From: an uncultured Gammaproteobacteria bacterium
Lineage (GTDB): Bacteria > Pseudomonadota > Gammaproteobacteria > SURF-13
Length of the DNA: 58,096 nucleotides
Reading direction: 5' to 3'
Assembly (NCBI GenBank): GCA_963925015.1
Contig: CAWUTX010000030.1
Coordinates: 1 to 58,096 of the forward strand
How positions within the stretch are numbered: the stretch's first letter is position 1; each line of letters starts with the position of its first letter. Of this stretch, positions 47,399-57,860 are shown piece after piece. The notes under the pieces are model-generated. The model was not told the DNA's origin. It did no database searches and was given only the letters and a program-made list of their open reading frames with translations. Both the position numbers and the translations under genes were made by a program.

Positions 47399-49546
47399 CT
47401 ATCCCGCCAGCTTCACACACCGCAACACCTCATACGAATACTGCCCACCCAATGCCTCGAACACTGGTTTGAGGGCCTGTTCGCCGTGGGTGTCCAGGGC
47501 GGCGTGGATGCGGGTTAGCTCTTCCTCGTCCAGCGGGACTACATCGCGCAGTTTGAGTTCGCCACGGGTGATGGCGAGGGTGAGGTGGTGGTAGACGGTG
47601 GTTTCTTTCAGGTCGCGGCGGTCGGCGATGGCGCGGGCGTCGAGGCCGAGGCGGAACAGGTGCAGGGTTTCGGCGGCGGTGTCTGAAAGAGCGCTGTTTT
47701 TGTCATCCTGTGCGAGGATGGTTTCGAGAAAATCTTCGCCGTAGGCGGCGAGTTTGCGTTCGCCGACGCCGGAGATGTGTGCGAGTTCTTCCAGCGTCTG
47801 CGGGCGGCGTTCGACCATTTCGGTGAGGGTGGCGTCGTGGAACACGACATAGGGCGGTACGCCTTGCGCCAAGGCGAGCTCGCGGCGGCGGGCGCGCAGG
47901 GCCTCCCACAGCATCAAGTCGGCTTCGCTGGTGAAGGTGTTGCTACGCTTGGAGGCTTTTGTCTCCGCCCTGCCCTCGCTCTTCAACGCTGAGGCTTTGG
48001 TTTTAATGGGGTCGCGGCGCAGCCACAGGCGCTCTTCGCCGCGCAGCACGGGGCGGCAGGCGTCGGTGAGTTGCAGCGCGCCGTGGCCTTCGATGTCCAC
48101 GGCGAGCAGGCCGCGCGCGATGAGTTGACGGAAGATGCTGCGCCATTCTTGCTGGCTCAAGTCCTGGCCGATACCGAAGGTGCTCGATTTGTCATGGCCG
48201 AAGCGCTGGATGCGCTCGTCTGTTTTGCCCATCAGCACGTCGAGCAGATAGTTGACGCCAAATCTTTGCCCGGTGCGGTGCACGCAGGAGAGCGCCTTCT
48301 GCGCGGGCACGCTGGCGTCCCAGGTTTCGGGCGGGTTGATGCAGGTGTCGCAGTTGCCGCAGGGGTTGGGCTGGGCGTCGTCAAAATACGCGAGCAGCGC
48401 CTGACGACGGCAGGTGGTGATTTCGCATAGGGCGAGCATGGCGTCGAGCTTGTGGCGTTCGACGCGCTTGCGCGCGGCGTCGGCCTCACCGGCTTCGAGC
48501 ATCTGGCGCAGCGTGATCACATCTTGCAGGCCGTAGATCATCCACGCGTCGGCGGGCAGGCCGTCGCGCCCGGCGCGGCCGGTCTCCTGGTAATAGGACT
48601 CGATGCTCTTCGGCAGGTTGAGGTGCGCGACGAAGCGCACGTTGGGCTTGTCTATGCCCATGCCGAAGGCGATGGTGGCGACGATGATGACGCCTTCCTC
48701 GTTGATGAAGCGCGACTGGTTGCGCTTGCGCACCTCGGCGGCCAGCCCGGCGTGATAAGGCAGCGCGTCCAGCCCTTGAGCTGCGAGCCAGGCGGCGATT
48801 TCGTCCACGCGCTTGCGCGACAAGCAGTAGACAATGCCGGCGTCGCCTGCGTGTTCGCTGCGGATGAAGCGCAGCAGTTGTTCGCGCGCGCTGTTGCCAC
48901 GTCCACTGTCGGCTTGTGCGATGCGGTAGCGGATGTTGGGGCGGTCGAAGCCGCTGATGAAGATGCGCGCGTTTTCGAGGCCGAGGCGGGCGATGATCTC
49001 GCGCCGCGTAGGTTCGTCGGCGGTGGCGGTGAGCGCGATGCGCGGGATATTTGGGAAGCGCTCGTGCAGCACCGAGAGCTGGATGTACTCGGGGCGGAAG
49101 TCGTGGCCCCATTGCGAAACGCAGTGCGCCTCGTCGATGGCGAACAGCGCAATGTTCGAGCGCGCCAGCAGGTCGAGCGTGCGCTCGGTCATCAGGCGTT
49201 CGGGTGCGATGTAAAGCAAGTCGAGTTCGCCGCGCAGGAGTTGCTGTTCGACCGCGCGCGCCGTGGTGGCATCAAGCGTGGAATTCAGAAATGCCGCACG
49301 CACGCCAGCCTGTTTCAGCGCAGCCACTTGATCCTGCATCAGCGAAATCAGCGGCGAGATGACCAGGCCGGTGCCGGGGCGCACGATGGACGGAATCTGG
49401 AAGCACAGCGATTTGCCGCCGCCGGTGGGCATCAGCACCAGCGCATCGCTGCCCGCCATGAGGGCATGGATGACTTCGTCCTGCGGCGCGCGGAAGCGTT
49501 CGTAGCCGAAGACGGTGCGCAGAATGTGAAGGGGCTGTTCGTTCAT
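47399..49546 (-). CDS. recQ: ATP-dependent DNA helicase RecQ (long form with an extra C-terminal HTH-like domain)
   Basis: 715-aa ORF with [45 protein letters not shown], the Zn-binding Cys cluster, RQC and HRDC, plus about 100 further aa. Confidence 0.95.
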
Positions 49547-49631: not shown

Positions 49632-50393
49632 TCAGTGCAGCCAGACGTATAAGCCCGCCGCGAGTGCGCCGGTGCCCGCGAGCACGGGTTTCCAGTGCCT
49701 GCGCAAAAAGGTCTTGAGTACGAAGTAGGCGTTGGGCTCGACCTTCACATTGCACTCCGGCCAGCTGAAGTGGAGCGCTTCTTCACTGCTCGGTATCTTG
49801 AGCCACAGCTCAAGCTCAAGCGCAAGCCTGCGGCGGCCGGCCTTGAGCGGCAGGACTTTCCAGGCCCATTGCAGGTCAGTGTTTGCCAGGCCTTGCTCGG
49901 CGGGGGTGAGCGGCGTGATGCTAAAGCCGTCGCCGGAGAGTTGCGCAGTGAGGTGGGCCCCGATCTTGAGCGTGGTCACCTTGGCGTGGGCCTGATTGAG
50001 GGCGCGGGTGATGGGGCTGACGATATTCTGCGTGAGCACTAGCTCCAGCCGCGCCGGTTCGCCCACCTGGAGGTCGTGCGGGGCGATGAAGCGCACATCC
50101 TCCAGATTGAGGTGGCCCAGCTCGCGCCGCATAATGAGGGGCGAGTCCTGTAACTCGTGCGCCAGATTGCCGTGCAGGTGGCTTACCGCAGACAACTGTG
50201 GCGCCGGGTCGTGATGGCGCAGTTGGGCGGAAAAGGCCGGCTCGTCCGCGCTCGCGGGCTGGTCGTGAATCTCGTCGGCGTGGCTCTTGCCACGGATGCT
50301 CTTCACCATCAGCCCCTTCATCACCACCACATAGAACAGTAGGTCGGCAAAGATAAACAGGATGATGATGACGATTATGCCTTTAACATCCAT
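49632..50393 (-). CDS. hypothetical protein with N- and C-terminal TM segments
   Basis: 253-aa ORF. I recognise no family. Hydrophobic helices at both ends. Confidence 0.45.
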   Translation of the reverse strand: MDVKGIIVIIILFIFADLLFYVVVMKGLMVKSIRGKSHADEIHDQPASADEPAFSAQLRHHDPAPQLSAVSHLHGNLAHELQDSPLIMRRELGHLNLEDVRFIAPHDLQVGEPARLELVLTQNIVSPITRALNQAHAKVTTLKIGAHLTAQLSGDGFSITPLTPAEQGLANTDLQWAWKVLPLKAGRRRLALELELWLKIPSSEEALHFSWPECNVKVEPNAYFVLKTFLRRHWKPVLAGTGALAAGLYVWLH

Positions 50394-50878: not shown

Positions 50879-51745
50879 ATGCGTCTGTTTTCAACAGCAT
50901 TATTTGCGGCGCTGTCGCTGTGCGGGATTGCCCTCGCTGTGGCGGAAGATCAGGCCGCTGCTCCTGCGCCCGCCCCTGCCGCTGATGTCGCCGCCCCTGC
51001 GGCCGCAGCAGCACCGGCCGCCCCCGCTCCTCACCCGATGCCGACGGGTTCGCTCAAGCTGGTAGGCAATCCTGAGAGTGGCAAAAAGATTTTTAATGAA
51101 GGCAAGGGCGAGGCTCCGCCTTGCATGTCTTGCCACGGTGAGAAAGGCCTCGGCGATGACAACATGGGCACGCCGCGCTTGGCCGGACAGGGCTTTGTCT
51201 ATCTCAGAAAGCAGTTGTATGAATTTGCCACCGACCGCCGCACCGATACCACCATGGGTGTGATGAACGGCATCGCCAAGGCACTGTCCGAGCAGGACAA
51301 GCACGACATCGCCGCTTATGAGTCCAGCATACATGGGGGCGCCCTCGCTGCGGCCTCAAATCTGGATGAGATCAAGACCGCTGGCGCCGTGCCGGTGGGT
51401 GAGAAGCACCTCGGCAAGGGCATCGTTATGCATGGCATCCCTGAGCAAGGTGTGACGGCCTGCGTGAGTTGCCACCAGTACAATGGCCGTGGCGCGTGGC
51501 CGGTCTACCCGACCATCGGCGGCCAGCGCTATGTTTACCTCGTCAACCAGCTGAAGAAGTGGCGCGACGGCAGCCGTGCCAACGATACGCTGGCGCAGAT
51601 GCGTGCGGTGGCGGGCAAGTTGACGGATGCAGACATCTACAATGTTTCGGCTTACCTCACCAGCGCGCCGCCCATTTCCGGCGGCAATTCACGCGAGCCG
51701 CATCAGCCGAAGCCTGCGACAGCCGGAGCGTCGGCGGCACACTGA
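50879..51745 (+). CDS. diheme cytochrome c4-type protein with N-terminal hydrophobic segment and an Ala/Pro-rich tether
   Basis: 288-aa ORF with two CxxCH motifs (CMSCH, CVSCH), each followed by a c4-like ...RL.GQ...Y...QL..... pattern and Met candidates. A roughly 30-aa AP-rich linker follows the signal/anchor. Confidence 0.85.
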   Translation: MRLFSTALFAALSLCGIALAVAEDQAAAPAPAPAADVAAPAAAAAPAAPAPHPMPTGSLKLVGNPESGKKIFNEGKGEAPPCMSCHGEKGLGDDNMGTPRLAGQGFVYLRKQLYEFATDRRTDTTMGVMNGIAKALSEQDKHDIAAYESSIHGGALAAASNLDEIKTAGAVPVGEKHLGKGIVMHGIPEQGVTACVSCHQYNGRGAWPVYPTIGGQRYVYLVNQLKKWRDGSRANDTLAQMRAVAGKLTDADIYNVSAYLTSAPPISGGNSREPHQPKPATAGASAAH

Positions 51746-51775
51746 CCCAACCAGACTGGTTTATAGTTGTCCCAT

Positions 51776-51805
51776 AAAGGGCGGGTTGACCGCCCTTTAT
51801 CTTTA
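51776..51805 (+). terminator. rho-independent terminator after the cytochrome c4 gene
   Basis: AAAGGGCGG-GTTGA-CCGCCCTTT followed by ATCTTT, read directly. Confidence 0.7.
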
Positions 51806-51836: not shown

Positions 51837-52436
51837 TTGATGGAGCGCAAACAATTACTCAAACCCGGTGAAAAGCTGCTGTTTGCCGTGTTTGGCGCAT
51901 TCCTGCTGCTCGCGGTGGTCGGTCTCGTGGTTATGGAGGTGGTGCGCGCCCAGATGTCGGAGCCGATGTTTGCCGCGCGCTCCTCTTTCAATCTGGGTGT
52001 CGCAGGTCAGCGTGGCTCCAAGCTGTTTCGTGAGGCCGGTTGCACCGCCTGCCACCGCGCTTTGCGCAATGGCACCAACCATGGCATCCGACTGGACGGC
52101 GTCGGCTCGCTCCGCAGCCAGCCATGGCTGGAGGTCTTTCTCAAGCATCCCGAGGCCAATTGGGCGACCGTGACCATAGATCACGGCCAACCGCCCAAGG
52201 AGGCGGCCTACGTCGCGCAATTGCCGCCGCAGGACTTGCACGACATCGCGATGTTTCTCTCCGAGTTGAAGGCTGAGCCGGGTTCGGCGACGTCCGCCCT
52301 GCCGCCGCCCGAGATCGCGCGGTCGGGCTTCGTCAATAGCATGACCGAGATGTGGGCGCCCGAGGTGTGGAAAGAGAAATATCAGGATATCCGCCACAAA
52401 AAACCAGCGGAAGGAGAAACGAATGAGACCCAATGA
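51837..52436 (+). CDS. membrane-anchored monoheme cytochrome c, shortened CcoO/FixO-like
   Basis: 199-aa ORF with an N-terminal TM and GSKLFREAGCTACHR (CxxCH). Then GIRLDGVGSLRSQPWLEVFLKHP, which parallels the CcoO segment GPDL..VG.R.S..W...HL.NP. Confidence 0.7.
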   Translation: MMERKQLLKPGEKLLFAVFGAFLLLAVVGLVVMEVVRAQMSEPMFAARSSFNLGVAGQRGSKLFREAGCTACHRALRNGTNHGIRLDGVGSLRSQPWLEVFLKHPEANWATVTIDHGQPPKEAAYVAQLPPQDLHDIAMFLSELKAEPGSATSALPPPEIARSGFVNSMTEMWAPEVWKEKYQDIRHKKPAEGETNETQ

Positions 52437-52938
52437 GGCCTATGGCCAGGAAACCGAGTACCGGCGCTACATTCTGTGGTTTATCGCGGCCTGCGTCATT
52501 TACAGCATCATCGGTTTTTCATGGGGCGTGACGGTGGGCATGCTGCCCGATCTGCGCGAGTTCATCAACCACCAGCCGCACGCACACCTCATCATGCTCG
52601 GCCACGCCCATATTAACCTGCTCGGCTGGGTGGAGATGGCGATCTTCGCGGCGGTGTACTACATCGTTCCGCGCATTGCGCAGCGCAACATCTACAGCCT
52701 GCGCCTGGTCAGCATTCATTTCTGGATACATAACTTCGGCCTGCTCGGCATGGTGGCGTCGTTTGTGCTCGCGGGCAGCCTGGGCGGGCTCGCCAGCCAG
52801 ACCATGGACATCAACGAGGTCAATAAAATCGTGCGCCCATTCATGATCGCGGTGGGAATGTTCGGCAGCCTGGTGCTGCTCTCCAACCTCATTTGGGCCT
52901 ACAACCTTTGGCGCACCGCGCGGCGTTGGCAGCCATAG
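52423..52938 (+). CDS. 171-aa, 4-TM 'mini-CcoN' homologous to helices IX-XII of heme-copper oxidase subunit I
   Basis: Alignable by eye to the C-terminus of the 469-aa CcoN in this window. LGHAHINLLGWVEMAIFAAVYYIVPRIAQRNIYSLRLVSIHFWIHNFG aligns with VAHAHLALLGFSTFIEVAAVYYGLQVLMKRKLYSLALANFHFWMLLIG. 14-nt overlap with the upstream cytochrome gene. Confidence 0.7.
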   Translation: MRPNEAYGQETEYRRYILWFIAACVIYSIIGFSWGVTVGMLPDLREFINHQPHAHLIMLGHAHINLLGWVEMAIFAAVYYIVPRIAQRNIYSLRLVSIHFWIHNFGLLGMVASFVLAGSLGGLASQTMDINEVNKIVRPFMIAVGMFGSLVLLSNLIWAYNLWRTARRWQP

Positions 52939-52942
52939 TATT

Positions 52943-53434
52943 ATGCGAGTTACGGGCCTCCTGTGCGCCGCCTTGCTCCTTGCGGCTTGCGATACCGGCT
53001 CCAGGGTCAAGGTCGGTCAACAGGCGCCGGCTATCGCCACCAAGACCCTGGCTGATGTGGGCGGCGACTTCGGCAAGATCACTACCTACCGCCATCCCGA
53101 TGCGCGCATGTACCAGTATTCGATCGACCAGGCGCTTAAAGAAGGCAAGCCCATCGTGCTTGCCTTCGCCACGCCCGGTCACTGCACGCCGTGCGACCAG
53201 CAGTTGCAGATGCTGAAGTCGATGATCGACCGGCATCAGGATCGCGTGCTGTTTCTGCACCTGGATCAATACCAGAATCCGCAGGCCTTCAAGGCCTTCG
53301 GCGTGATGGGCGACCCGTGGACGTATATCGTCGACGCGCAGGGCACGGTGCGCTATGTGCAGGCGGGGCGCGTGTTGCGCGGCGAGTTGGAGGCGGCGCT
53401 GATGCCGGTTCTGGCGCAGACAGCGCAACCATGA
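52943..53434 (+). CDS. TlpA/ResA-like thioredoxin-fold lipoprotein
   Basis: 163-aa ORF with lipobox LLLAAC and a thioredoxin-fold CxxC (ATPGHCTPC). Confidence 0.75.
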   Translation: MRVTGLLCAALLLAACDTGSRVKVGQQAPAIATKTLADVGGDFGKITTYRHPDARMYQYSIDQALKEGKPIVLAFATPGHCTPCDQQLQMLKSMIDRHQDRVLFLHLDQYQNPQAFKAFGVMGDPWTYIVDAQGTVRYVQAGRVLRGELEAALMPVLAQTAQP

Positions 53435-53880
53435 GCGCGCGCTATGTGTTGCAGCAGGATCGCACCGGTCTGGTCTGGGATCTGATGCTCTATGTACCTA
53501 CTGTGGGTGTGCTCGGCCTGCTGGCCGTCAAGCTCTGGTATGGCGCTAATCAGGGTGCGGCCTACGTGCTGTTTTTCATGGCCTCTTTTTTTTTCATCGC
53601 CGGCGCCAACCGCATCCTCAAGACCCGTCTCATGCTGCTGCCGACAGCGCCAGTTGCGCTTGAAGTCGAGGCCGGTCAGGTGCGGCTGGGTCTGCGCAAC
53701 GGTGAGTACATCAGCATGGTAAAGGACGTGCGCTTTTACATCGACACGCAGGGCAAATCGTTCGGACTGTCCGGCAAGGATATGCTCGGGCGCCCGCAGC
53801 AACACGTTTTTCATCGCGGGCAGTTCGCCGATGAGAAGGGTTACCATGAAGCTGTGCTGGCGCTGCAGCCGTATAAATAG
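53431..53880 (+). CDS. hypothetical 2-TM membrane protein with a soluble C-terminal domain
   Basis: ATG at 53431 overlaps the preceding stop (ATGA). 149 aa. I recognise no family. Confidence 0.5.
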   Translation: MSARYVLQQDRTGLVWDLMLYVPTVGVLGLLAVKLWYGANQGAAYVLFFMASFFFIAGANRILKTRLMLLPTAPVALEVEAGQVRLGLRNGEYISMVKDVRFYIDTQGKSFGLSGKDMLGRPQQHVFHRGQFADEKGYHEAVLALQPYK

Positions 53881-53886
53881 CGGCTC

Positions 53887-54084
53887 TTATGAGCCCCTGC
53901 GGCGGCGCGTGACGATATCCCAGCCCATATAAGCGAGGCAGGCCGCGCCGATCAGGCAGACGATGAGGATCACGGTGCGCTCGGTGTCTGGGCTCACTAA
54001 TCCACCGATAAACATGTGCACTGAATACCCAAGAACCACGAGACCGCCCAAGGCAGCCAGACCGTAAAGTAAAAGTTCTTTCAT
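53887..54084 (-). CDS. hypothetical 65-aa 2-TM protein
   Basis: ORF-track ORF with two clear hydrophobic helices and a basic tail. It is the only minus-strand ORF in the cluster. Confidence 0.4.
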   Translation of the reverse strand: MKELLLYGLAALGGLVVLGYSVHMFIGGLVSPDTERTVILIVCLIGAACLAYMGWDIVTRRRRGS

Positions 54085-54197
54085 GCAGGTGTTGAAAATG
54101 TCCTGTCACCTAGGGTACATTAAGTATAGATATAAACTGCGGCTGCAGGGTGAGTAGGCAACCGCTAGACAGACTTATTTTTGATGTGGAGACTGGG

Positions 54198-54494
54198 ATG
54201 GCAAAGCAAGTCAGCATGGTAAGAAAGTCCCTCATTCTGAGCCTGGTGGTAGGCATGGTGGTGGGCATGGGTAACGGTAGCGTGTTCGGCATTTATCTCA
54301 TGGCGAACCTGGGCCGCGGAAGTTTTGCGGAGTGGGGCGGCTGGGGTGTGCAGTCTTACAGCCCATTTGGCTACTTCAACGGCTTTATGACATGGACCAT
54401 GCTGGTGTTCGGCGTCGCGTTCGTATGGATATTATTGTCCGCCCTTCATGGCCATGATAAAATGTCAAAAATTCAAGAGGGCGGCGGGCACTAA
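54198..54494 (+). CDS. hypothetical 98-aa 2-TM protein
   Basis: ATG at 54198 preceded by GGAG. Gly/Trp/aromatic-rich loop between two TM helices. Confidence 0.45.
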   Translation: MAKQVSMVRKSLILSLVVGMVVGMGNGSVFGIYLMANLGRGSFAEWGGWGVQSYSPFGYFNGFMTWTMLVFGVAFVWILLSALHGHDKMSKIQEGGGH

Positions 54495-54769: not shown

Positions 54770-56179
54770 ATGTTGATAAAATATCTGTTCGGCAAGAACG
54801 CGGACATCCCGCCAGGCACCGCTGCGGTTTTTTTCTCCTTCTCGGCCATCGTCTGGTTCATTATCGGTACCGGCCTCGGTTCATTTAATGCCGCCAAGCT
54901 CGCGTTTCCTGACTGGGTAACCGGTTTTGAGTTCTTCGCCTTCGGCAAGATGCGCCAAGTGCATGTGATGGCGGTGATCTTCGGCTGGATCTCCATGGCC
55001 TTCGCCGCCGCCATGATGTATATCACCCCCGCGCTCGGCAACACCAAGCTGTGGTCGGAGAAGCTCGGACTGTGGAGCTGCATGAACTGGAATATCGGCC
55101 TCGCGCTCGGCCTGTTCACGCTGTGGATGGGCATGACCTCGGGTCGTGAATATTCCGACTTCATCTACCCCATCGACCTGATTCTGACGTTTGCTGTGCT
55201 GATCCCGGTGGCGCTCAACGTGTGGATGACCATCGCCAAGCGTCGCACCCAGGGTATTTACACTACCAACTGGTTCTTCGCCGCCTCGATCTTCATGCTT
55301 TTGATCGTGCTGCTGGTGGGCAACCTGCCTGAATACTTCCACCTCACCGGCCTCACCGAGGCCTATCTTACCTGGTGGAACGCGCACAACATTCTGGGCC
55401 TGTGGATCACCCCGGTGGCCGCCGCCATTGCCTATTACATCATCCCCAAGATTACTGGCAACCCGCTCTACTCGCATCGTATCGGCCACCTGCACTTCTG
55501 GTCGATCGTGATTTTCTACTCCACGCCCGCCGCGCATCACCTGATGTCCGCGCCGCTGCCGGAGTGGCTGAAGTCCTTCGCTTCGGTGGAGGGCGTGCTA
55601 ATTCTGGTGCCGGCGATTGCCTTCGTCTCCAACATCCTGCTCACCTTGCAGGGCAAGTGGAACATGTTCGTGGAGAACATCGAAATTCGCTTCACCGTGA
55701 CCGGCGTGCTGCTCGCCATCCCGCTCAATATGCAGGGTGGCTTCCAGCAGACCCGATCCATCAATTGGTACATACACGGTACCGGCTGGATCGTGGCGCA
55801 TGCTCACTTGGCCTTGCTCGGCTTCTCAACCTTCATTGAAGTCGCCGCCGTGTACTATGGCCTGCAAGTGCTGATGAAGCGCAAACTTTACTCGCTCGCG
55901 CTCGCCAACTTCCATTTCTGGATGCTGCTCATCGGCTTCTCAATCTACTGGATTTCGATGACCATCGCCGGCCTGATTCAGGGCGCGGGCAAGATTTATG
56001 AAGTGCCGTACATCGACATCGTGGCCGCGGAGCATCCGTACATGATCGCGCGCTGGTTCGGTGGCACCCTGGTGTTCCTCGGCAACTGCGTGTGGCTGTA
56101 CAACATGTACATGACGGCGCGTGAGGGCACCCCGGTGCCCGCAGGCCGCATGGTGCATGAGCTGGCCTACCAGCGTTAA
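54770..56179 (+). CDS. ccoN: cbb3-type (C-family) heme-copper oxidase subunit I
   Basis: 469-aa, 12-TM ORF. Helix II His (FGKMRQVHV), CuB His (WWNAHNILG; AAHHL), the helix-VII Tyr six residues before HH (IFYSTPAAHH) as in the cross-linked Tyr of cbb3, and helix X HAH (VAHAHLALLGF). Confidence 0.9.
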   Translation: MLIKYLFGKNADIPPGTAAVFFSFSAIVWFIIGTGLGSFNAAKLAFPDWVTGFEFFAFGKMRQVHVMAVIFGWISMAFAAAMMYITPALGNTKLWSEKLGLWSCMNWNIGLALGLFTLWMGMTSGREYSDFIYPIDLILTFAVLIPVALNVWMTIAKRRTQGIYTTNWFFAASIFMLLIVLLVGNLPEYFHLTGLTEAYLTWWNAHNILGLWITPVAAAIAYYIIPKITGNPLYSHRIGHLHFWSIVIFYSTPAAHHLMSAPLPEWLKSFASVEGVLILVPAIAFVSNILLTLQGKWNMFVENIEIRFTVTGVLLAIPLNMQGGFQQTRSINWYIHGTGWIVAHAHLALLGFSTFIEVAAVYYGLQVLMKRKLYSLALANFHFWMLLIGFSIYWISMTIAGLIQGAGKIYEVPYIDIVAAEHPYMIARWFGGTLVFLGNCVWLYNMYMTAREGTPVPAGRMVHELAYQR

Positions 56180-56206
56180 TTCTGGAAAAATTTAAAGGAG
56201 CTTAAC

Positions 56207-57157
56207 GTGGCTTTTAGAGAATATCGAATCGGCGCCGTGATGTTCGGCGCAGCACTCAGCTTGTCCATGTTCATCACGCTGGTGGTGCCGAGCATCAACA
56301 TCTTCTCGGTAGGGTCTACGGCGCTTGCCCTGGAGAAGCAGTTGACCTACGGCTTCAACAGCGGCTGGAACACGGATGATATGTTCTTGGCTGGCAAAAA
56401 CAAACCGCTTAAGGTTCTGCTAAAGCAGGACCCACAGACGGACGCCGTGATGGAGCCGGTGCATGCCTACGTGTTCCCTGCCAATGCACGCTTTCCGAGC
56501 GGCATTCTGCACCCCAAGGTGTTGGGCGCCGGGTCTGACGTGCTGAGTGTAGAGCAGGGCAGGATCAGCGAGGCCAGCGAGGCGCGGGGCGCCGTGTTTG
56601 TGGTGCGCAGCGGCGAGCAGAACGGCAAATCCTATCCCTATATCGAAAACGCCAGCGCTACGCGCGGCTGGAGCCCGGATGCCGTACTAAAGGCCGCCGG
56701 TGATGCCAACACCAGCCATGCCGGTGCGGGCAAGACTATCTTTGTGCGTGAGGGCTGCTGGTGGTGCCACACCCTGCTGCCCGAGCAGACGCAGGACTTC
56801 CAGTATTTCGGCGCGCCGCCCTACCTGGGCGACTTCAACGGCGAATCCCCGACCGCGTTCGGCTCTGACCGCAAGGCCCCTGACCTGCTGCATGTGGGTT
56901 CGCGCAACTCATCGAAAGAGTGGCTGATGATGCACTTCTTCAATCCGCGTCTGGTGCAGCCGCACTCGCTCATGCCGCGCTTTGACTACCTGTGGGGCAA
57001 GACCGACGCCGCTGGCAACACGATCGATTACGCCGCCTGGCGCAAGGAATTCGTGGAGTACCGCAACGGCGAGCGCGTCACGCCGCCTGAGGTGCCGAAC
57101 TACCGTGCCGATAGCAAGATTCGCTATCTCATAGACTTTGTCTTGAACCTGAAGTAA
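56207..57157 (+). CDS. ccoO: CcoO-like monoheme subunit with a large N-proximal insertion
   Basis: 316-aa ORF with GTG start after AGGAG. TM anchor, then CxxCH only at residues 184-188 (REGCWWCHT). Then the CcoO signature GSDRKAPDLLHVGSRNSSKEWLMMHFFNPRLVQPHSLMPRF. Confidence 0.85.
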   Translation: MAFREYRIGAVMFGAALSLSMFITLVVPSINIFSVGSTALALEKQLTYGFNSGWNTDDMFLAGKNKPLKVLLKQDPQTDAVMEPVHAYVFPANARFPSGILHPKVLGAGSDVLSVEQGRISEASEARGAVFVVRSGEQNGKSYPYIENASATRGWSPDAVLKAAGDANTSHAGAGKTIFVREGCWWCHTLLPEQTQDFQYFGAPPYLGDFNGESPTAFGSDRKAPDLLHVGSRNSSKEWLMMHFFNPRLVQPHSLMPRFDYLWGKTDAAGNTIDYAAWRKEFVEYRNGERVTPPEVPNYRADSKIRYLIDFVLNLK

Positions 57158-57170
57158 TAGGAGGAGTGTC

Positions 57171-57860
57171 ATGACCTGGAGATTTGATAATCCGCTGCGC
57201 ACATTGACCAGTGATGAGCAAAACAAGACCGCCATGGAAGTATGGGAGGCGGAGAGCATGGGCGGGATTATGGAAAACAATAACCGTCTGCCGCAGCCGG
57301 TGGTTTATTTGCTGGTGCTGACCATCATATCTGCCTATCTCATTACCTTCCCGTTGTGGGGTCAGCGTCCTACCGCTGCGATCTACGCAGAGTTTGTGGC
57401 TGAGATGGACAGCGCCCAGGTTGAGGCGCTGCCGAATGACGCCGCGCGCATGAACTACCTGCTGAAGAAGGCGCAGACAGACGGCTCAAAATACGTCACT
57501 CCGCATATCAATCACCCCATCAGCATGGATGATCTGCGCGTGCTGCGTCCCCAGATCGAGGCACTGAAGGCCCAGGGCGTGGTGCTGGATGACTACACGG
57601 TGGTAGGCAACAAGGTGGTGCTGGCCAATTTCGAAGGCAATATGCGCGCAGACGGTACCCAGGAGCGCCAGCAACCGTGGTGGGACAAGGGCTATACCAT
57701 CGACATCTTCTACGTGATCTACTTCTGTATCGCGGTATTGATTGTGGTGAAGCGCCTGCCCCCCAATACCGTACAACCGCGCCACGGCAATGAACTCATG
57801 CTGAGTGACGCCGAGATTGCTGAGCTGAGCGTGCATGGACAAAAGAGGAGAGTAGCATGA
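57171..57860 (+). CDS. heme-less membrane protein with a CcoP/FixP N-terminal-like anchor
   Basis: 229-aa ORF after AGGAGG. GIMENNNRLPQPVVYLLVLTIISAYLITFPLWG parallels the FixP_N segment GIEEYDNPLPRWW...YPG. There is no CxxCH anywhere. A second TM lies near the C-terminus. Confidence 0.6.
   Translation: MTWRFDNPLRTLTSDEQNKTAMEVWEAESMGGIMENNNRLPQPVVYLLVLTIISAYLITFPLWGQRPTAAIYAEFVAEMDSAQVEALPNDAARMNYLLKKAQTDGSKYVTPHINHPISMDDLRVLRPQIEALKAQGVVLDDYTVVGNKVVLANFEGNMRADGTQERQQPWWDKGYTIDIFYVIYFCIAVLIVVKRLPPNTVQPRHGNELMLSDAEIAELSVHGQKRRVA

Follow-up and report, generated by a model that had tools for sequence, protein, structure and literature searches.

The window analysed in this study is a 58,096-nucleotide (nt) stretch of DNA from an uncultured gammaproteobacterium (contig CAWUTX010000030.1 of assembly GCA_963925015.1, positions 1 to 58,096 of the forward strand). 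Near its 3' end lies a compact operon whose second gene encodes a 171-amino acid (aa) membrane protein, here named mini-COX1. Judged from its sequence, mini-COX1 is a single four-helix unit of the kind that subunit I of the heme-copper oxidases contains in three copies. It is encoded together with a membrane-anchored cytochrome c, a thioredoxin-fold lipoprotein and a 149-aa membrane protein, and the operon is flanked by a diheme cytochrome gene and a cluster of oxidase genes. The genes and features identified at the locus are as follows.

50879..51745, + strand: diheme class I cytochrome c, 288 aa, with two CxxCH motifs (Pfam Cytochrom_C, E-value 9.7e-16)
51774..51800, + strand: terminator-like hairpin with a T-rich tail and an 11-pair stem including 6 GC pairs, a presumed terminator
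51837..52436, + strand: membrane-anchored monoheme cytochrome c, 199 aa, starting with TTG at 51837 or ATG at 51840
52423..52938, + strand: mini-COX1, 171 aa, four helices, equivalent by sequence to one of the repeats in subunit I of the heme-copper oxidases
52943..53434, + strand: periplasmic thioredoxin-fold lipoprotein, 163 aa, with Pfam Thioredoxin and AhpC-TSA matches
53431..53880, + strand: membrane protein, 149 aa, with two helices predicted at the N terminus and a C-terminal domain that is conserved
53887..54084, - strand: conserved 65-aa two-helix open reading frame (ORF) that travels with the module in most genomes, including Zetaproteobacteria (phmmer)
54150-54494, + strand: small ORF of up to 114 aa with predicted membrane helices, conserved in most loci
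54770..57860 and on beyond the window end, + strand: divergent C-family oxidase cluster encoding a CcoN-like protein of 469 aa, a CcoO-like protein of 316 aa and a 229-aa protein

The genes for the monoheme cytochrome, mini-COX1, the thioredoxin-fold lipoprotein and the 149-aa protein are joined with spacings of -14, +4 and -4 nt. The cytochrome ORF ends with a TGA at 52434-52436, inside the mini-COX1 gene that begins with an ATG at 52423, and a Shine-Dalgarno sequence (GAAGGAG) lies 6 nt 5' of this ATG. The ATG of the 149-aa gene overlaps the stop codon of the thioredoxin gene (ATGA). A preliminary description of this DNA had reported the first two ORFs with their 14-nt overlap, and its coordinates agree with those found here. 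However, it took the two ORFs for a two-gene pair, whereas they are the core of a translationally coupled four-gene operon with the thioredoxin and 149-aa genes.

Mini-COX1 matches the Pfam COX1 family (PF00115) at profile positions 299-431 of 436, with an E-value of 1.6e-17 and 63.9 bits against a cut-off of 34.8. Its score with the ccoN equivalog model TIGR00780 is 57.9 bits against a cut-off of 583, and only positions 332-458 of the 474 in that model are covered. Within the window, residues 331-455 of the 469-aa oxidase subunit share 35% amino acid identity with mini-COX1 (BLASTP, E-value 7e-18). The best matches among solved structures are CcoN chains, for example residues 332-463 of 3mk7_A. 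An AlphaFold monomer model built from 32 homologs has a predicted local distance difference test (pLDDT) score of 94.8 and contains four helices (residues 10-40, 56-85, 93-124, and 130-166). Superposed on CcoN chains, this model gives query TM-scores of 0.82-0.85, and all of its significant structure matches are catalytic subunits of oxidases or nitric oxide (NO) reductases. The idea that the gene encodes a 'mini-CcoN' consisting of helices IX-XII with the helix-X H-x-H pair is borne out by these results. With about four transmembrane (TM) helices encoded by an independent gene, homologs that are consistently 165-185 aa in length, and its strongest similarity to helices 9-12, mini-COX1 belongs to the single-unit oxidase homologs and is not ccoN debris.

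Only two candidate ligands, H61 and H63, are invariant in mini-COX1. They form an H-x-H motif near the periplasmic end of helix 2, which is invariant down to 30% identity. Helix 3 has no His-His pair, and neither the helix VII His-His ligands of CuB nor an equivalent of the cross-linked Tyr was found in the family alignments. The absence of CuB histidines from the 171-aa protein had already been pointed out in the preliminary description.

The similarity of mini-COX1 to the oxidases is not limited to their last third. Two further segments of the in-window oxidase subunit are matched in BLASTP, residues 168-244 (E-value 2e-7) and residues 65-99 (E-value 7e-5), and on 3mk7_A residues 13-109 and 208-246 are matched in addition to 332-463. 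The mini-COX1 family profile finds three repeats in each full-length oxidase subunit I tested, located at residues 19-126, 165-248, and 322-451 of the in-window protein. On this profile, the His of oxidase helix II falls in register with H61 and that of helix VI with H63, and helix X has both. In the cbb3 oxidase structure 3MK7, the ligands of heme b are the His of helix II and the second His of helix X. Heme b3 takes the first His of helix X as its ligand, with the helix VI His binding CuB across heme b3. With these ligand assignments, a cyclic rule in which the first His of unit k is combined with the second His of unit k-1 reproduces both real sites, that of heme b and that of heme b3 and CuB. 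The third first-His/second-His site of the oxidases is empty, as other residues stand in place of the histidines. With a spacing of two residues on a helix, H61 and H63 point about 200 degrees apart, so that one monomer cannot ligate one heme with both. If the invariant histidines bind heme, oligomerisation would therefore be close to required. By the same three-repeat logic, the dimer suggested in the preliminary description is less likely than a trimer.

Proteins with one unit (130-190 aa), two units (approximately 281 aa), and three units in compact form (approximately 390-440 aa) were found in the protein library. The closest three-unit relatives, 411-419 aa in length, carry an H-x-H in each unit, with five of the six histidines invariant and the remaining one conserved in at least 90% of sequences. 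The mini family aligns with this three-unit family with an hhalign probability of 99.8%. The model of a three-unit relative has 12 helices (pLDDT, 91.7; predicted TM-score or pTM, 0.91) and superposes on the whole CcoN with TM-scores of 0.80 (query) and 0.72 (target). Since the three-unit relative is predicted to fold like CcoN, three copies of the unit can build an oxidase core. These triple-repeat homologs are alike to mini-COX1 in unit and in the H-x-H of each repeat. Unlike mini-COX1, they have the units fused in one chain, come from other, mostly delta-type Proteobacteria metagenome-assembled genomes and do not have an anchored cytochrome c partner.

The entire one-, two-, and three-unit series (P0124 and P0422-P0445 with three units, P0447-P0454 with two, as well as P0455-P0456 and loci L088-L090) has been named automatically as 'cbb3-type cytochrome c oxidase subunit I'. 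When given to 170-aa proteins, this name can inflate oxidase counts in metagenome surveys. Two forms of approximately 325 aa have a PF08984 domain fused to one oxidase-like unit. In addition, a second, more divergent mini-COX1 paralogue of 170-172 aa that keeps the H-x-H is encoded in L005 (10684-11196), in L052, and by Tel_00520 of Candidatus (Ca.) Tenderia electrophaga. The paralogue gene is located at the far end of the region, beyond the window end, near genes for a CcoG-like polyferredoxin and a small monoheme cytochrome. Mixed trimers of the two mini-COX1 forms are a possibility.

The 199-aa protein encoded upstream of mini-COX1 belongs to the Pfam family Cytochrom_C (PF00034; E-value 1.8e-9, 39.2 bits against a cut-off of 21.3), which is matched by 29 of 29 homologs. 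Its N terminus contains a 20-residue hydrophobic segment with F16, F22, and A26 invariant in the 29 homologs. The presence of invariant residues inside the hydrophobic segment suggests a retained membrane anchor and not a cleaved signal peptide. The single CxxCH (C69, C72, H73) is also invariant in these homologs. The preliminary description saw no obvious Met ligand, and indeed no conserved Met was found in the 29-homolog alignment. H116, within a T-x-D-H-G motif, is the sole invariant candidate for the sixth ligand. Because H116 is invariant and no Met is conserved, the heme of this cytochrome is likely to have His/His ligation. The C-terminal tail (W173-A174-P175..W178) is conserved as well.

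This cytochrome had been described as a shortened CcoO. The part of that description concerning an anchored monoheme cytochrome stands, with its invariant anchor residues and one CxxCH, but the assignment to CcoO does not. No FixO (PF02433) match was obtained for the 199-aa protein in Pfam at E-values up to 1, and FixO appears only below threshold in 12 of the 29 homologs, with a best E-value of 2e-4. Of the COX1 and FixO profile searches suggested for the pair, only that with COX1 gave a significant match. In the PDB profile search, the top match is the N-terminal cytochrome domain of ActA from alternative complex III (ACIII; 2.8e-6), NorC has an E-value of 0.5, and no CcoO chain was retrieved. 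Compared by hhalign, the cytochrome family matches the local CcoO-like family with a probability of 1.3% over 44 columns around the CxxCH, against 91% (E-value 1e-6, 86 columns) for the neighbouring Cyc1-like diheme family. The G..LDGVG..RS..W..FL..PE motif, which had been taken as a CcoO landmark, also aligns with ActA and with a Sco-cytochrome c fusion. On the basis of the Pfam search, the family scan, the PDB profile search, and the hhalign comparison, a CcoO origin is not supported and was rejected. With an anchor helix and one heme domain encoded beside a COX1-type gene, the cytochrome seems to resemble CcoO by architecture, not by descent. It shares only the generic class I fold with CcoO and probably has His/His ligation where CcoO has His/Met. 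Compared with CcoN and CcoO of 3MK7, the window pair is thus alike in the fold of helices IX-XII, the helix-X H-x-H, and an adjoining gene for a monoheme cytochrome c anchored by a single helix. It differs in that mini-COX1 has one of three units and lacks the CuB histidines and the cross-linked Tyr, and in that the gene order is reversed.

A word-indexed search retrieved 746 protein clusters of mini-COX1 relatives, and the best 120 of these 746 are all 169-202 aa in length. At least 553 species genomes contain a mini-COX1 relative, of which 80 species-level genome loci were fetched for a neighbourhood survey. The cytochrome gene is located directly 5' of the mini-COX1 gene in 76 of 76 genomes with enough flanking sequence, the thioredoxin gene directly 3' of it in 79 of 79, and the 149-aa gene after the thioredoxin gene in 75 of 76. 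The diheme cytochrome gene lies directly upstream of the operon in 64 of 74 genomes, and not in Zetaproteobacteria. In independent gene calls from relatives, the cytochrome and mini-COX1 genes overlap by 8, 11, 1, 4, and 4 nt. The carriers are uncultured Gammaproteobacteria (Chromatiales, Ectothiorhodospiraceae, Thiohalomonadales, and Ca. Tenderia) and Zetaproteobacteria. They include Mariprofundus ferrooxydans PV-1 (mini-COX1, WP_009851773) and a Ca. Tenderia sp. genome (L070), and the closest locus (L008) shares 92% protein identity. Comparisons with seven relatives gave ratios of non-synonymous to synonymous substitution rates (dN/dS) of 0.10-0.23 for mini-COX1 in six pairs and 0.44 in the seventh, and of 0.15-0.26 for the 199-aa cytochrome. 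Both ORFs are intact and under purifying selection, in agreement with the maintained module of the preliminary description.

Four-helix homologs of oxidase subunit I form a recognised class. Pei, Li, Kinch and Grishin are said to have described in 2014 such homologs as most similar to helices 9-12 and to have proposed that they form homo- or heterotrimers. A connection of many such homologs with denitrification and the detoxification of NO was reportedly drawn as well. Mini-COX1 resembles this class in having four TM helices, a best match to helices 9-12 with similarity to all three four-helix units, and a conserved His pair. The mini-COX1 gene is distinguished by its partner genes, among them a translationally coupled one for a dedicated anchored cytochrome c and those for the thioredoxin lipoprotein and the 149-aa membrane protein. 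It also lies in the Cyc1/cbb3 cassette of iron- and electrode-oxidising autotrophs and not in a denitrification context.

An operon with identical gene order is present in Ca. Tenderia electrophaga, for which metatranscriptomic data have been published (Eddie et al., 2017 mSystems, Table S1). In these data, Cyc1 (Tel_00405; ALP51722.1), at the same position as the diheme gene of the window, has a log counts per million (logCPM) value of 12.4. The monoheme protein (Tel_00410), assigned to 'Complex IV (1)', has a value of 9.3, the 525-bp 'cytochrome oxidase CcoN' (Tel_00415) 8.7, and the thioredoxin (Tel_00420) 9.6. Tel_00440, assigned to 'Complex IV (2)', reaches 13.7 and ranks with the genes of highest expression. 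Transcript levels are thus similar for the first three operon genes, roughly 8- to 12-fold below Cyc1, and this drop after Cyc1 fits the hairpin at 51774-51800 in the window. Expression of the module did not differ significantly with electrode potential (false discovery rate or FDR, 0.56-0.64) (Eddie et al., 2017 mSystems).

The same region was later listed as di-heme, monoheme, truncated CcoN, Thioredoxin, ..., CcoN, CcoO, ..., truncated CcoN, was found to be conserved in Tenderiales and some iron oxidisers, and was proposed to be 'a sort of alternative complex IV' (Eddie et al., 2022, 10.1101/2022.05.06.490989). Synteny with M. ferrooxydans had been noted in the earlier paper, which cites Barco et al. 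for conservation of the cassette in neutrophilic iron oxidisers (Eddie et al., 2017 mSystems). 'cbb3-1' and 'Complex IV (1)' are earlier labels for the Tenderia module (Eddie et al., 2017, 2022). The window has the order diheme, monoheme, truncated CcoN, thioredoxin, ..., CcoN, CcoO in common with Tenderia. The Tenderia papers provide annotation and transcripts, and the repeat unit, the His register, the oligomer, and the wider distribution are not treated in them. No experiment on the mini-COX1 family was found in the literature, and He et al. (2017) do not mention it. The earlier statement that no characterised function is known for such a pair thus holds, but the gene itself had been noticed before as 'truncated CcoN' in Ca. 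Tenderia electrophaga. In summary, its kind is already known, and its partner set is distinctive.

To place mini-COX1 relative to the oxidases, a neighbour-joining tree was built from 118 repeat units (98 columns, 100 bootstraps). In this tree, each of the three oxidase units groups separately, and the mini family likewise stands apart as a group that is monophyletic in 84 of 100 bootstraps. Only 4 of the 100 place this family within the group of third oxidase units. The 169-aa protein P0164 falls inside the third-unit group and looks like a true fragment, which indicates that the tree method can tell a fragment from the mini family. A recent truncation of CcoN was considered as the origin of mini-COX1 and rejected on this basis. 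There appears to be no sign of such an event, although the tree is weak evidence, with poorly resolved deep nodes.

The tree also bears on the notion that mini-COX1 is a decaying and functionless fragment of a duplicated ccoNO. The best sequence match to the last third of CcoN and the annotators' name 'truncated CcoN' would suit this notion. Nevertheless, we give it next to no credence. The length stays at about 170-180 aa in hundreds of clusters, the gene occurs in at least 553 species genomes, the ligand histidines are invariant, and the family rarely nests in the third-repeat clade. Moreover, the low dN/dS, the wide distribution, and the transcription in Tenderia lead us to reject gene decay.

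The thioredoxin-fold lipoprotein has a CTPC that aligns on the WCGPC of thioredoxin 1nw2. An H-C-T-x-C-D motif is conserved in this protein, and the CxxC is present in at least 95% of 88 sequences. A Sco-like copper chaperone was considered as its identity and rejected, because the CxxC falls on WCGPC and is not the CxxxC of Sco. The 149-aa protein has no significant match in Pfam, NCBIfam, or PDB. It contains conserved motifs, and its non-membrane domain is conserved.

The oxidase cluster downstream encodes three proteins. The CcoN-like protein of 469 aa matches COX1 with an E-value of 4.8e-77, with a ccoN equivalog score of 241 bits against the cut-off of 583. Its canonical heme and CuB His motifs and the helix VII Tyr look to be kept. 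It is extremely conserved (91-97% identity, dN/dS 0.03-0.08), compared to 60-80% identity for the neighbouring genes. The 316-aa CcoO-like protein matches FixO (E-value 1.8e-17) and has an N-terminal extension of approximately 170 aa. The third protein, of 229 aa, matches only the N-terminal anchor of FixP and has no heme motif. This oxidase is probably of the 'distal' cbb3 type. In 44 of 53 genomes with enough flanking sequence, the oxidase cluster is located in the flank of the module, and in the remaining nine it is not. It is absent within 10 kb of the module in several Gammaproteobacteria. No oxidase was seen beside the module of M. ferrooxydans PV-1, where the contig ends approximately 2 kb downstream. 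The upstream neighbours of the PV-1 module are unrelated and include ClpB and a sigma-54 two-component system (approximately 4 kb upstream). In Tenderia, module transcripts are approximately 30-fold below those of the neighbouring oxidase. Given this difference and the occurrences of the module without an oxidase nearby, it is unlikely to provide a stoichiometric subunit of that enzyme.

We propose that the module forms a copper-free heme complex, a reading that we hold to be about as probable as all others combined. Mini-COX1 would assemble as a ring of three, either as a homotrimer or, where the paralogue is present, as a mixed trimer, and this ring would rebuild the 12-helix oxidase core. 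At each interface, the first His of one subunit and the second His of the next would bind a heme, so that the ring could contain as many as three bis-His b-type hemes close to its periplasmic face. The His register and the predicted CcoN-like fold of the triple-repeat relatives lend the trimer indirect support. Anchored cytochromes c, probably with His/His ligation, would sit atop the ring, as CcoO does on CcoN. A ring with no CuB ligands and no obvious open heme site suggests a copper-free electron-transfer module on the periplasmic side. It would serve the Cyc1-to-oxidase electron route of iron- and electrode-oxidising autotrophs and would not be a proton-pumping oxygen reductase. The thioredoxin lipoprotein most likely would function in maturation, keeping the heme-binding cysteines reduced.

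Several observations weigh against this proposal. Heme binding by mini-COX1 is deduced from ligand positions only, and the trimer is likewise putative. Within the close mini-COX1 family, conservation extends to H53, H99, and H103, so that another ligation scheme is conceivable. H99 lies near the cytoplasmic end of helix 3 and so cannot pair with H61 or H63. The two-unit relatives of approximately 281 aa do not fit a simple ring of three. One three-unit relative adjoins genes for a SCO1/SenC copper chaperone and a small cytochrome c, and the chaperone hints that some family members may bind copper. The deep nodes of the repeat tree have low resolution, with bootstrap values of 27-47% for the three oxidase groups. 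Finally, a pure electron wire does not explain the tight linkage to the thioredoxin and the 149-aa protein. None of the readings considered here accounts well for the invariant presence of the 149-aa protein, for the conserved 65-aa ORF on the opposite strand, or for the location of a triple-repeat relative beside SCO1/SenC.

Among the alternatives, the module may be a copper-free catalytic enzyme, a symmetry-broken trimer in which the anchored cytochrome c supplies electrons to one five-coordinate interface heme for the reduction of NO, O2, or peroxide. Such an enzyme would amount to an alternative complex IV or to a reductase for detoxification. The register of H61 and H63 fits both the site of heme b and the catalytic one of heme b3 and CuB, a triple-repeat relative is encoded beside SCO1/SenC, and an alternative complex IV has been proposed for the region (Eddie et al., 2022). 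A summarising passage in a haloarchaeal paper also reports the link drawn by Pei et al. (2014) between oxidase homologs and detoxification of N-compounds. However, the family has neither the helix VII His-His ligands of CuB nor an equivalent of the cross-linked Tyr, and six equivalent histidines per trimer favour three six-coordinate hemes. In addition, the conserved neighbourhood showed no genes related to NO or nitrite, and the Tenderia expression was not significantly changed by electrode potential. We therefore regard a catalytic enzyme as unlikely. A bolder version of our own proposal is doubtful to a greater degree. It would take the module as a 3+3 complex with three b and three c hemes, a living equivalent of the ancestor of heme-copper oxidases before triplication. 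Such a complex would be a copper-free terminal or branch-point redox enzyme in its own right (e.g., a cytochrome c-driven O2, NO, or quinone reductase) and not a helper of the neighbouring oxidase.

A role as an accessory or assembly factor of the neighbouring divergent cbb3-type oxidase, for example as a heme or helix-bundle chaperone that matures CcoN and CcoO together with the thioredoxin, would account for the adjacency of the oxidase genes in most genomes. TlpA- and Sco-type proteins are oxidase biogenesis factors, a thioredoxin-fold protein is always attached to the module, and expression of the module in Tenderia is sub-stoichiometric to the oxidase. This role is nonetheless rather improbable, since the module occurs without an oxidase nearby in Zetaproteobacteria, including M. 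ferrooxydans PV-1, and in the nine genomes mentioned above. Triple-repeat relatives likewise occur with no oxidase nearby, and a dedicated cytochrome c with invariant heme ligands would be superfluous for an assembly factor. A sensor role was suggested in the preliminary description. A redox or gas sensor, in which the heme of a mini-COX1 oligomer informs the 149-aa membrane protein about O2, NO, or the redox state of the periplasm, appears very improbable. The conserved non-membrane domain of the 149-aa partner and the sigma-54 two-component system upstream of the Mariprofundus module would agree with a sensor, but no recognisable signalling domain was found in any of the four operon proteins, and conservation of the neighbourhood does not extend to the two-component genes.

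Heme-copper oxidases are the main oxygen-reducing enzymes, and their 12-helix core has long been viewed as three similar four-helix arcs. Mini-COX1 corresponds to exactly one arc, with both ligand histidines and its own cytochrome c, and is therefore a natural test object for the origin of the oxidase core. It could show whether three separate subunits hold hemes between them. Although no surprise in kind, it offers an abundant experimental handle on oxidase core assembly. In iron-oxidising Zetaproteobacteria and the electroautotrophic Tenderiales, the module also lies in an electron-uptake cassette, which comprises Cyc1 and a divergent cbb3 oxidase of very high expression. A function for the module would fill the 'Complex IV (1)' box in models of the electron path to oxygen and NAD+ in these organisms.

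Other genes in and around the locus were also recorded. The 65-aa ORF (53887..54084) and the ORF at 54150-54494 have no family match, and in most loci they separate the module from the oxidase cluster. Past the end of the window, a gene for an FGE-sulfatase-domain protein (L001, 14785-15828; annotated as a serine/threonine kinase in Tenderia) is conserved 3' of the oxidase cluster, as is a gene for a spermine-synthase-like protein of approximately 870 aa. No multiheme cytochromes were found elsewhere in the window. Upstream of the cytochrome genes, a RecQ helicase (47399-49546, - strand) and a 253-aa hypothetical protein (49632-50393, - strand) are encoded. Their placement is kept only in the closest relatives (L001, L002, L008, L009, and L012), which puts them outside the module.

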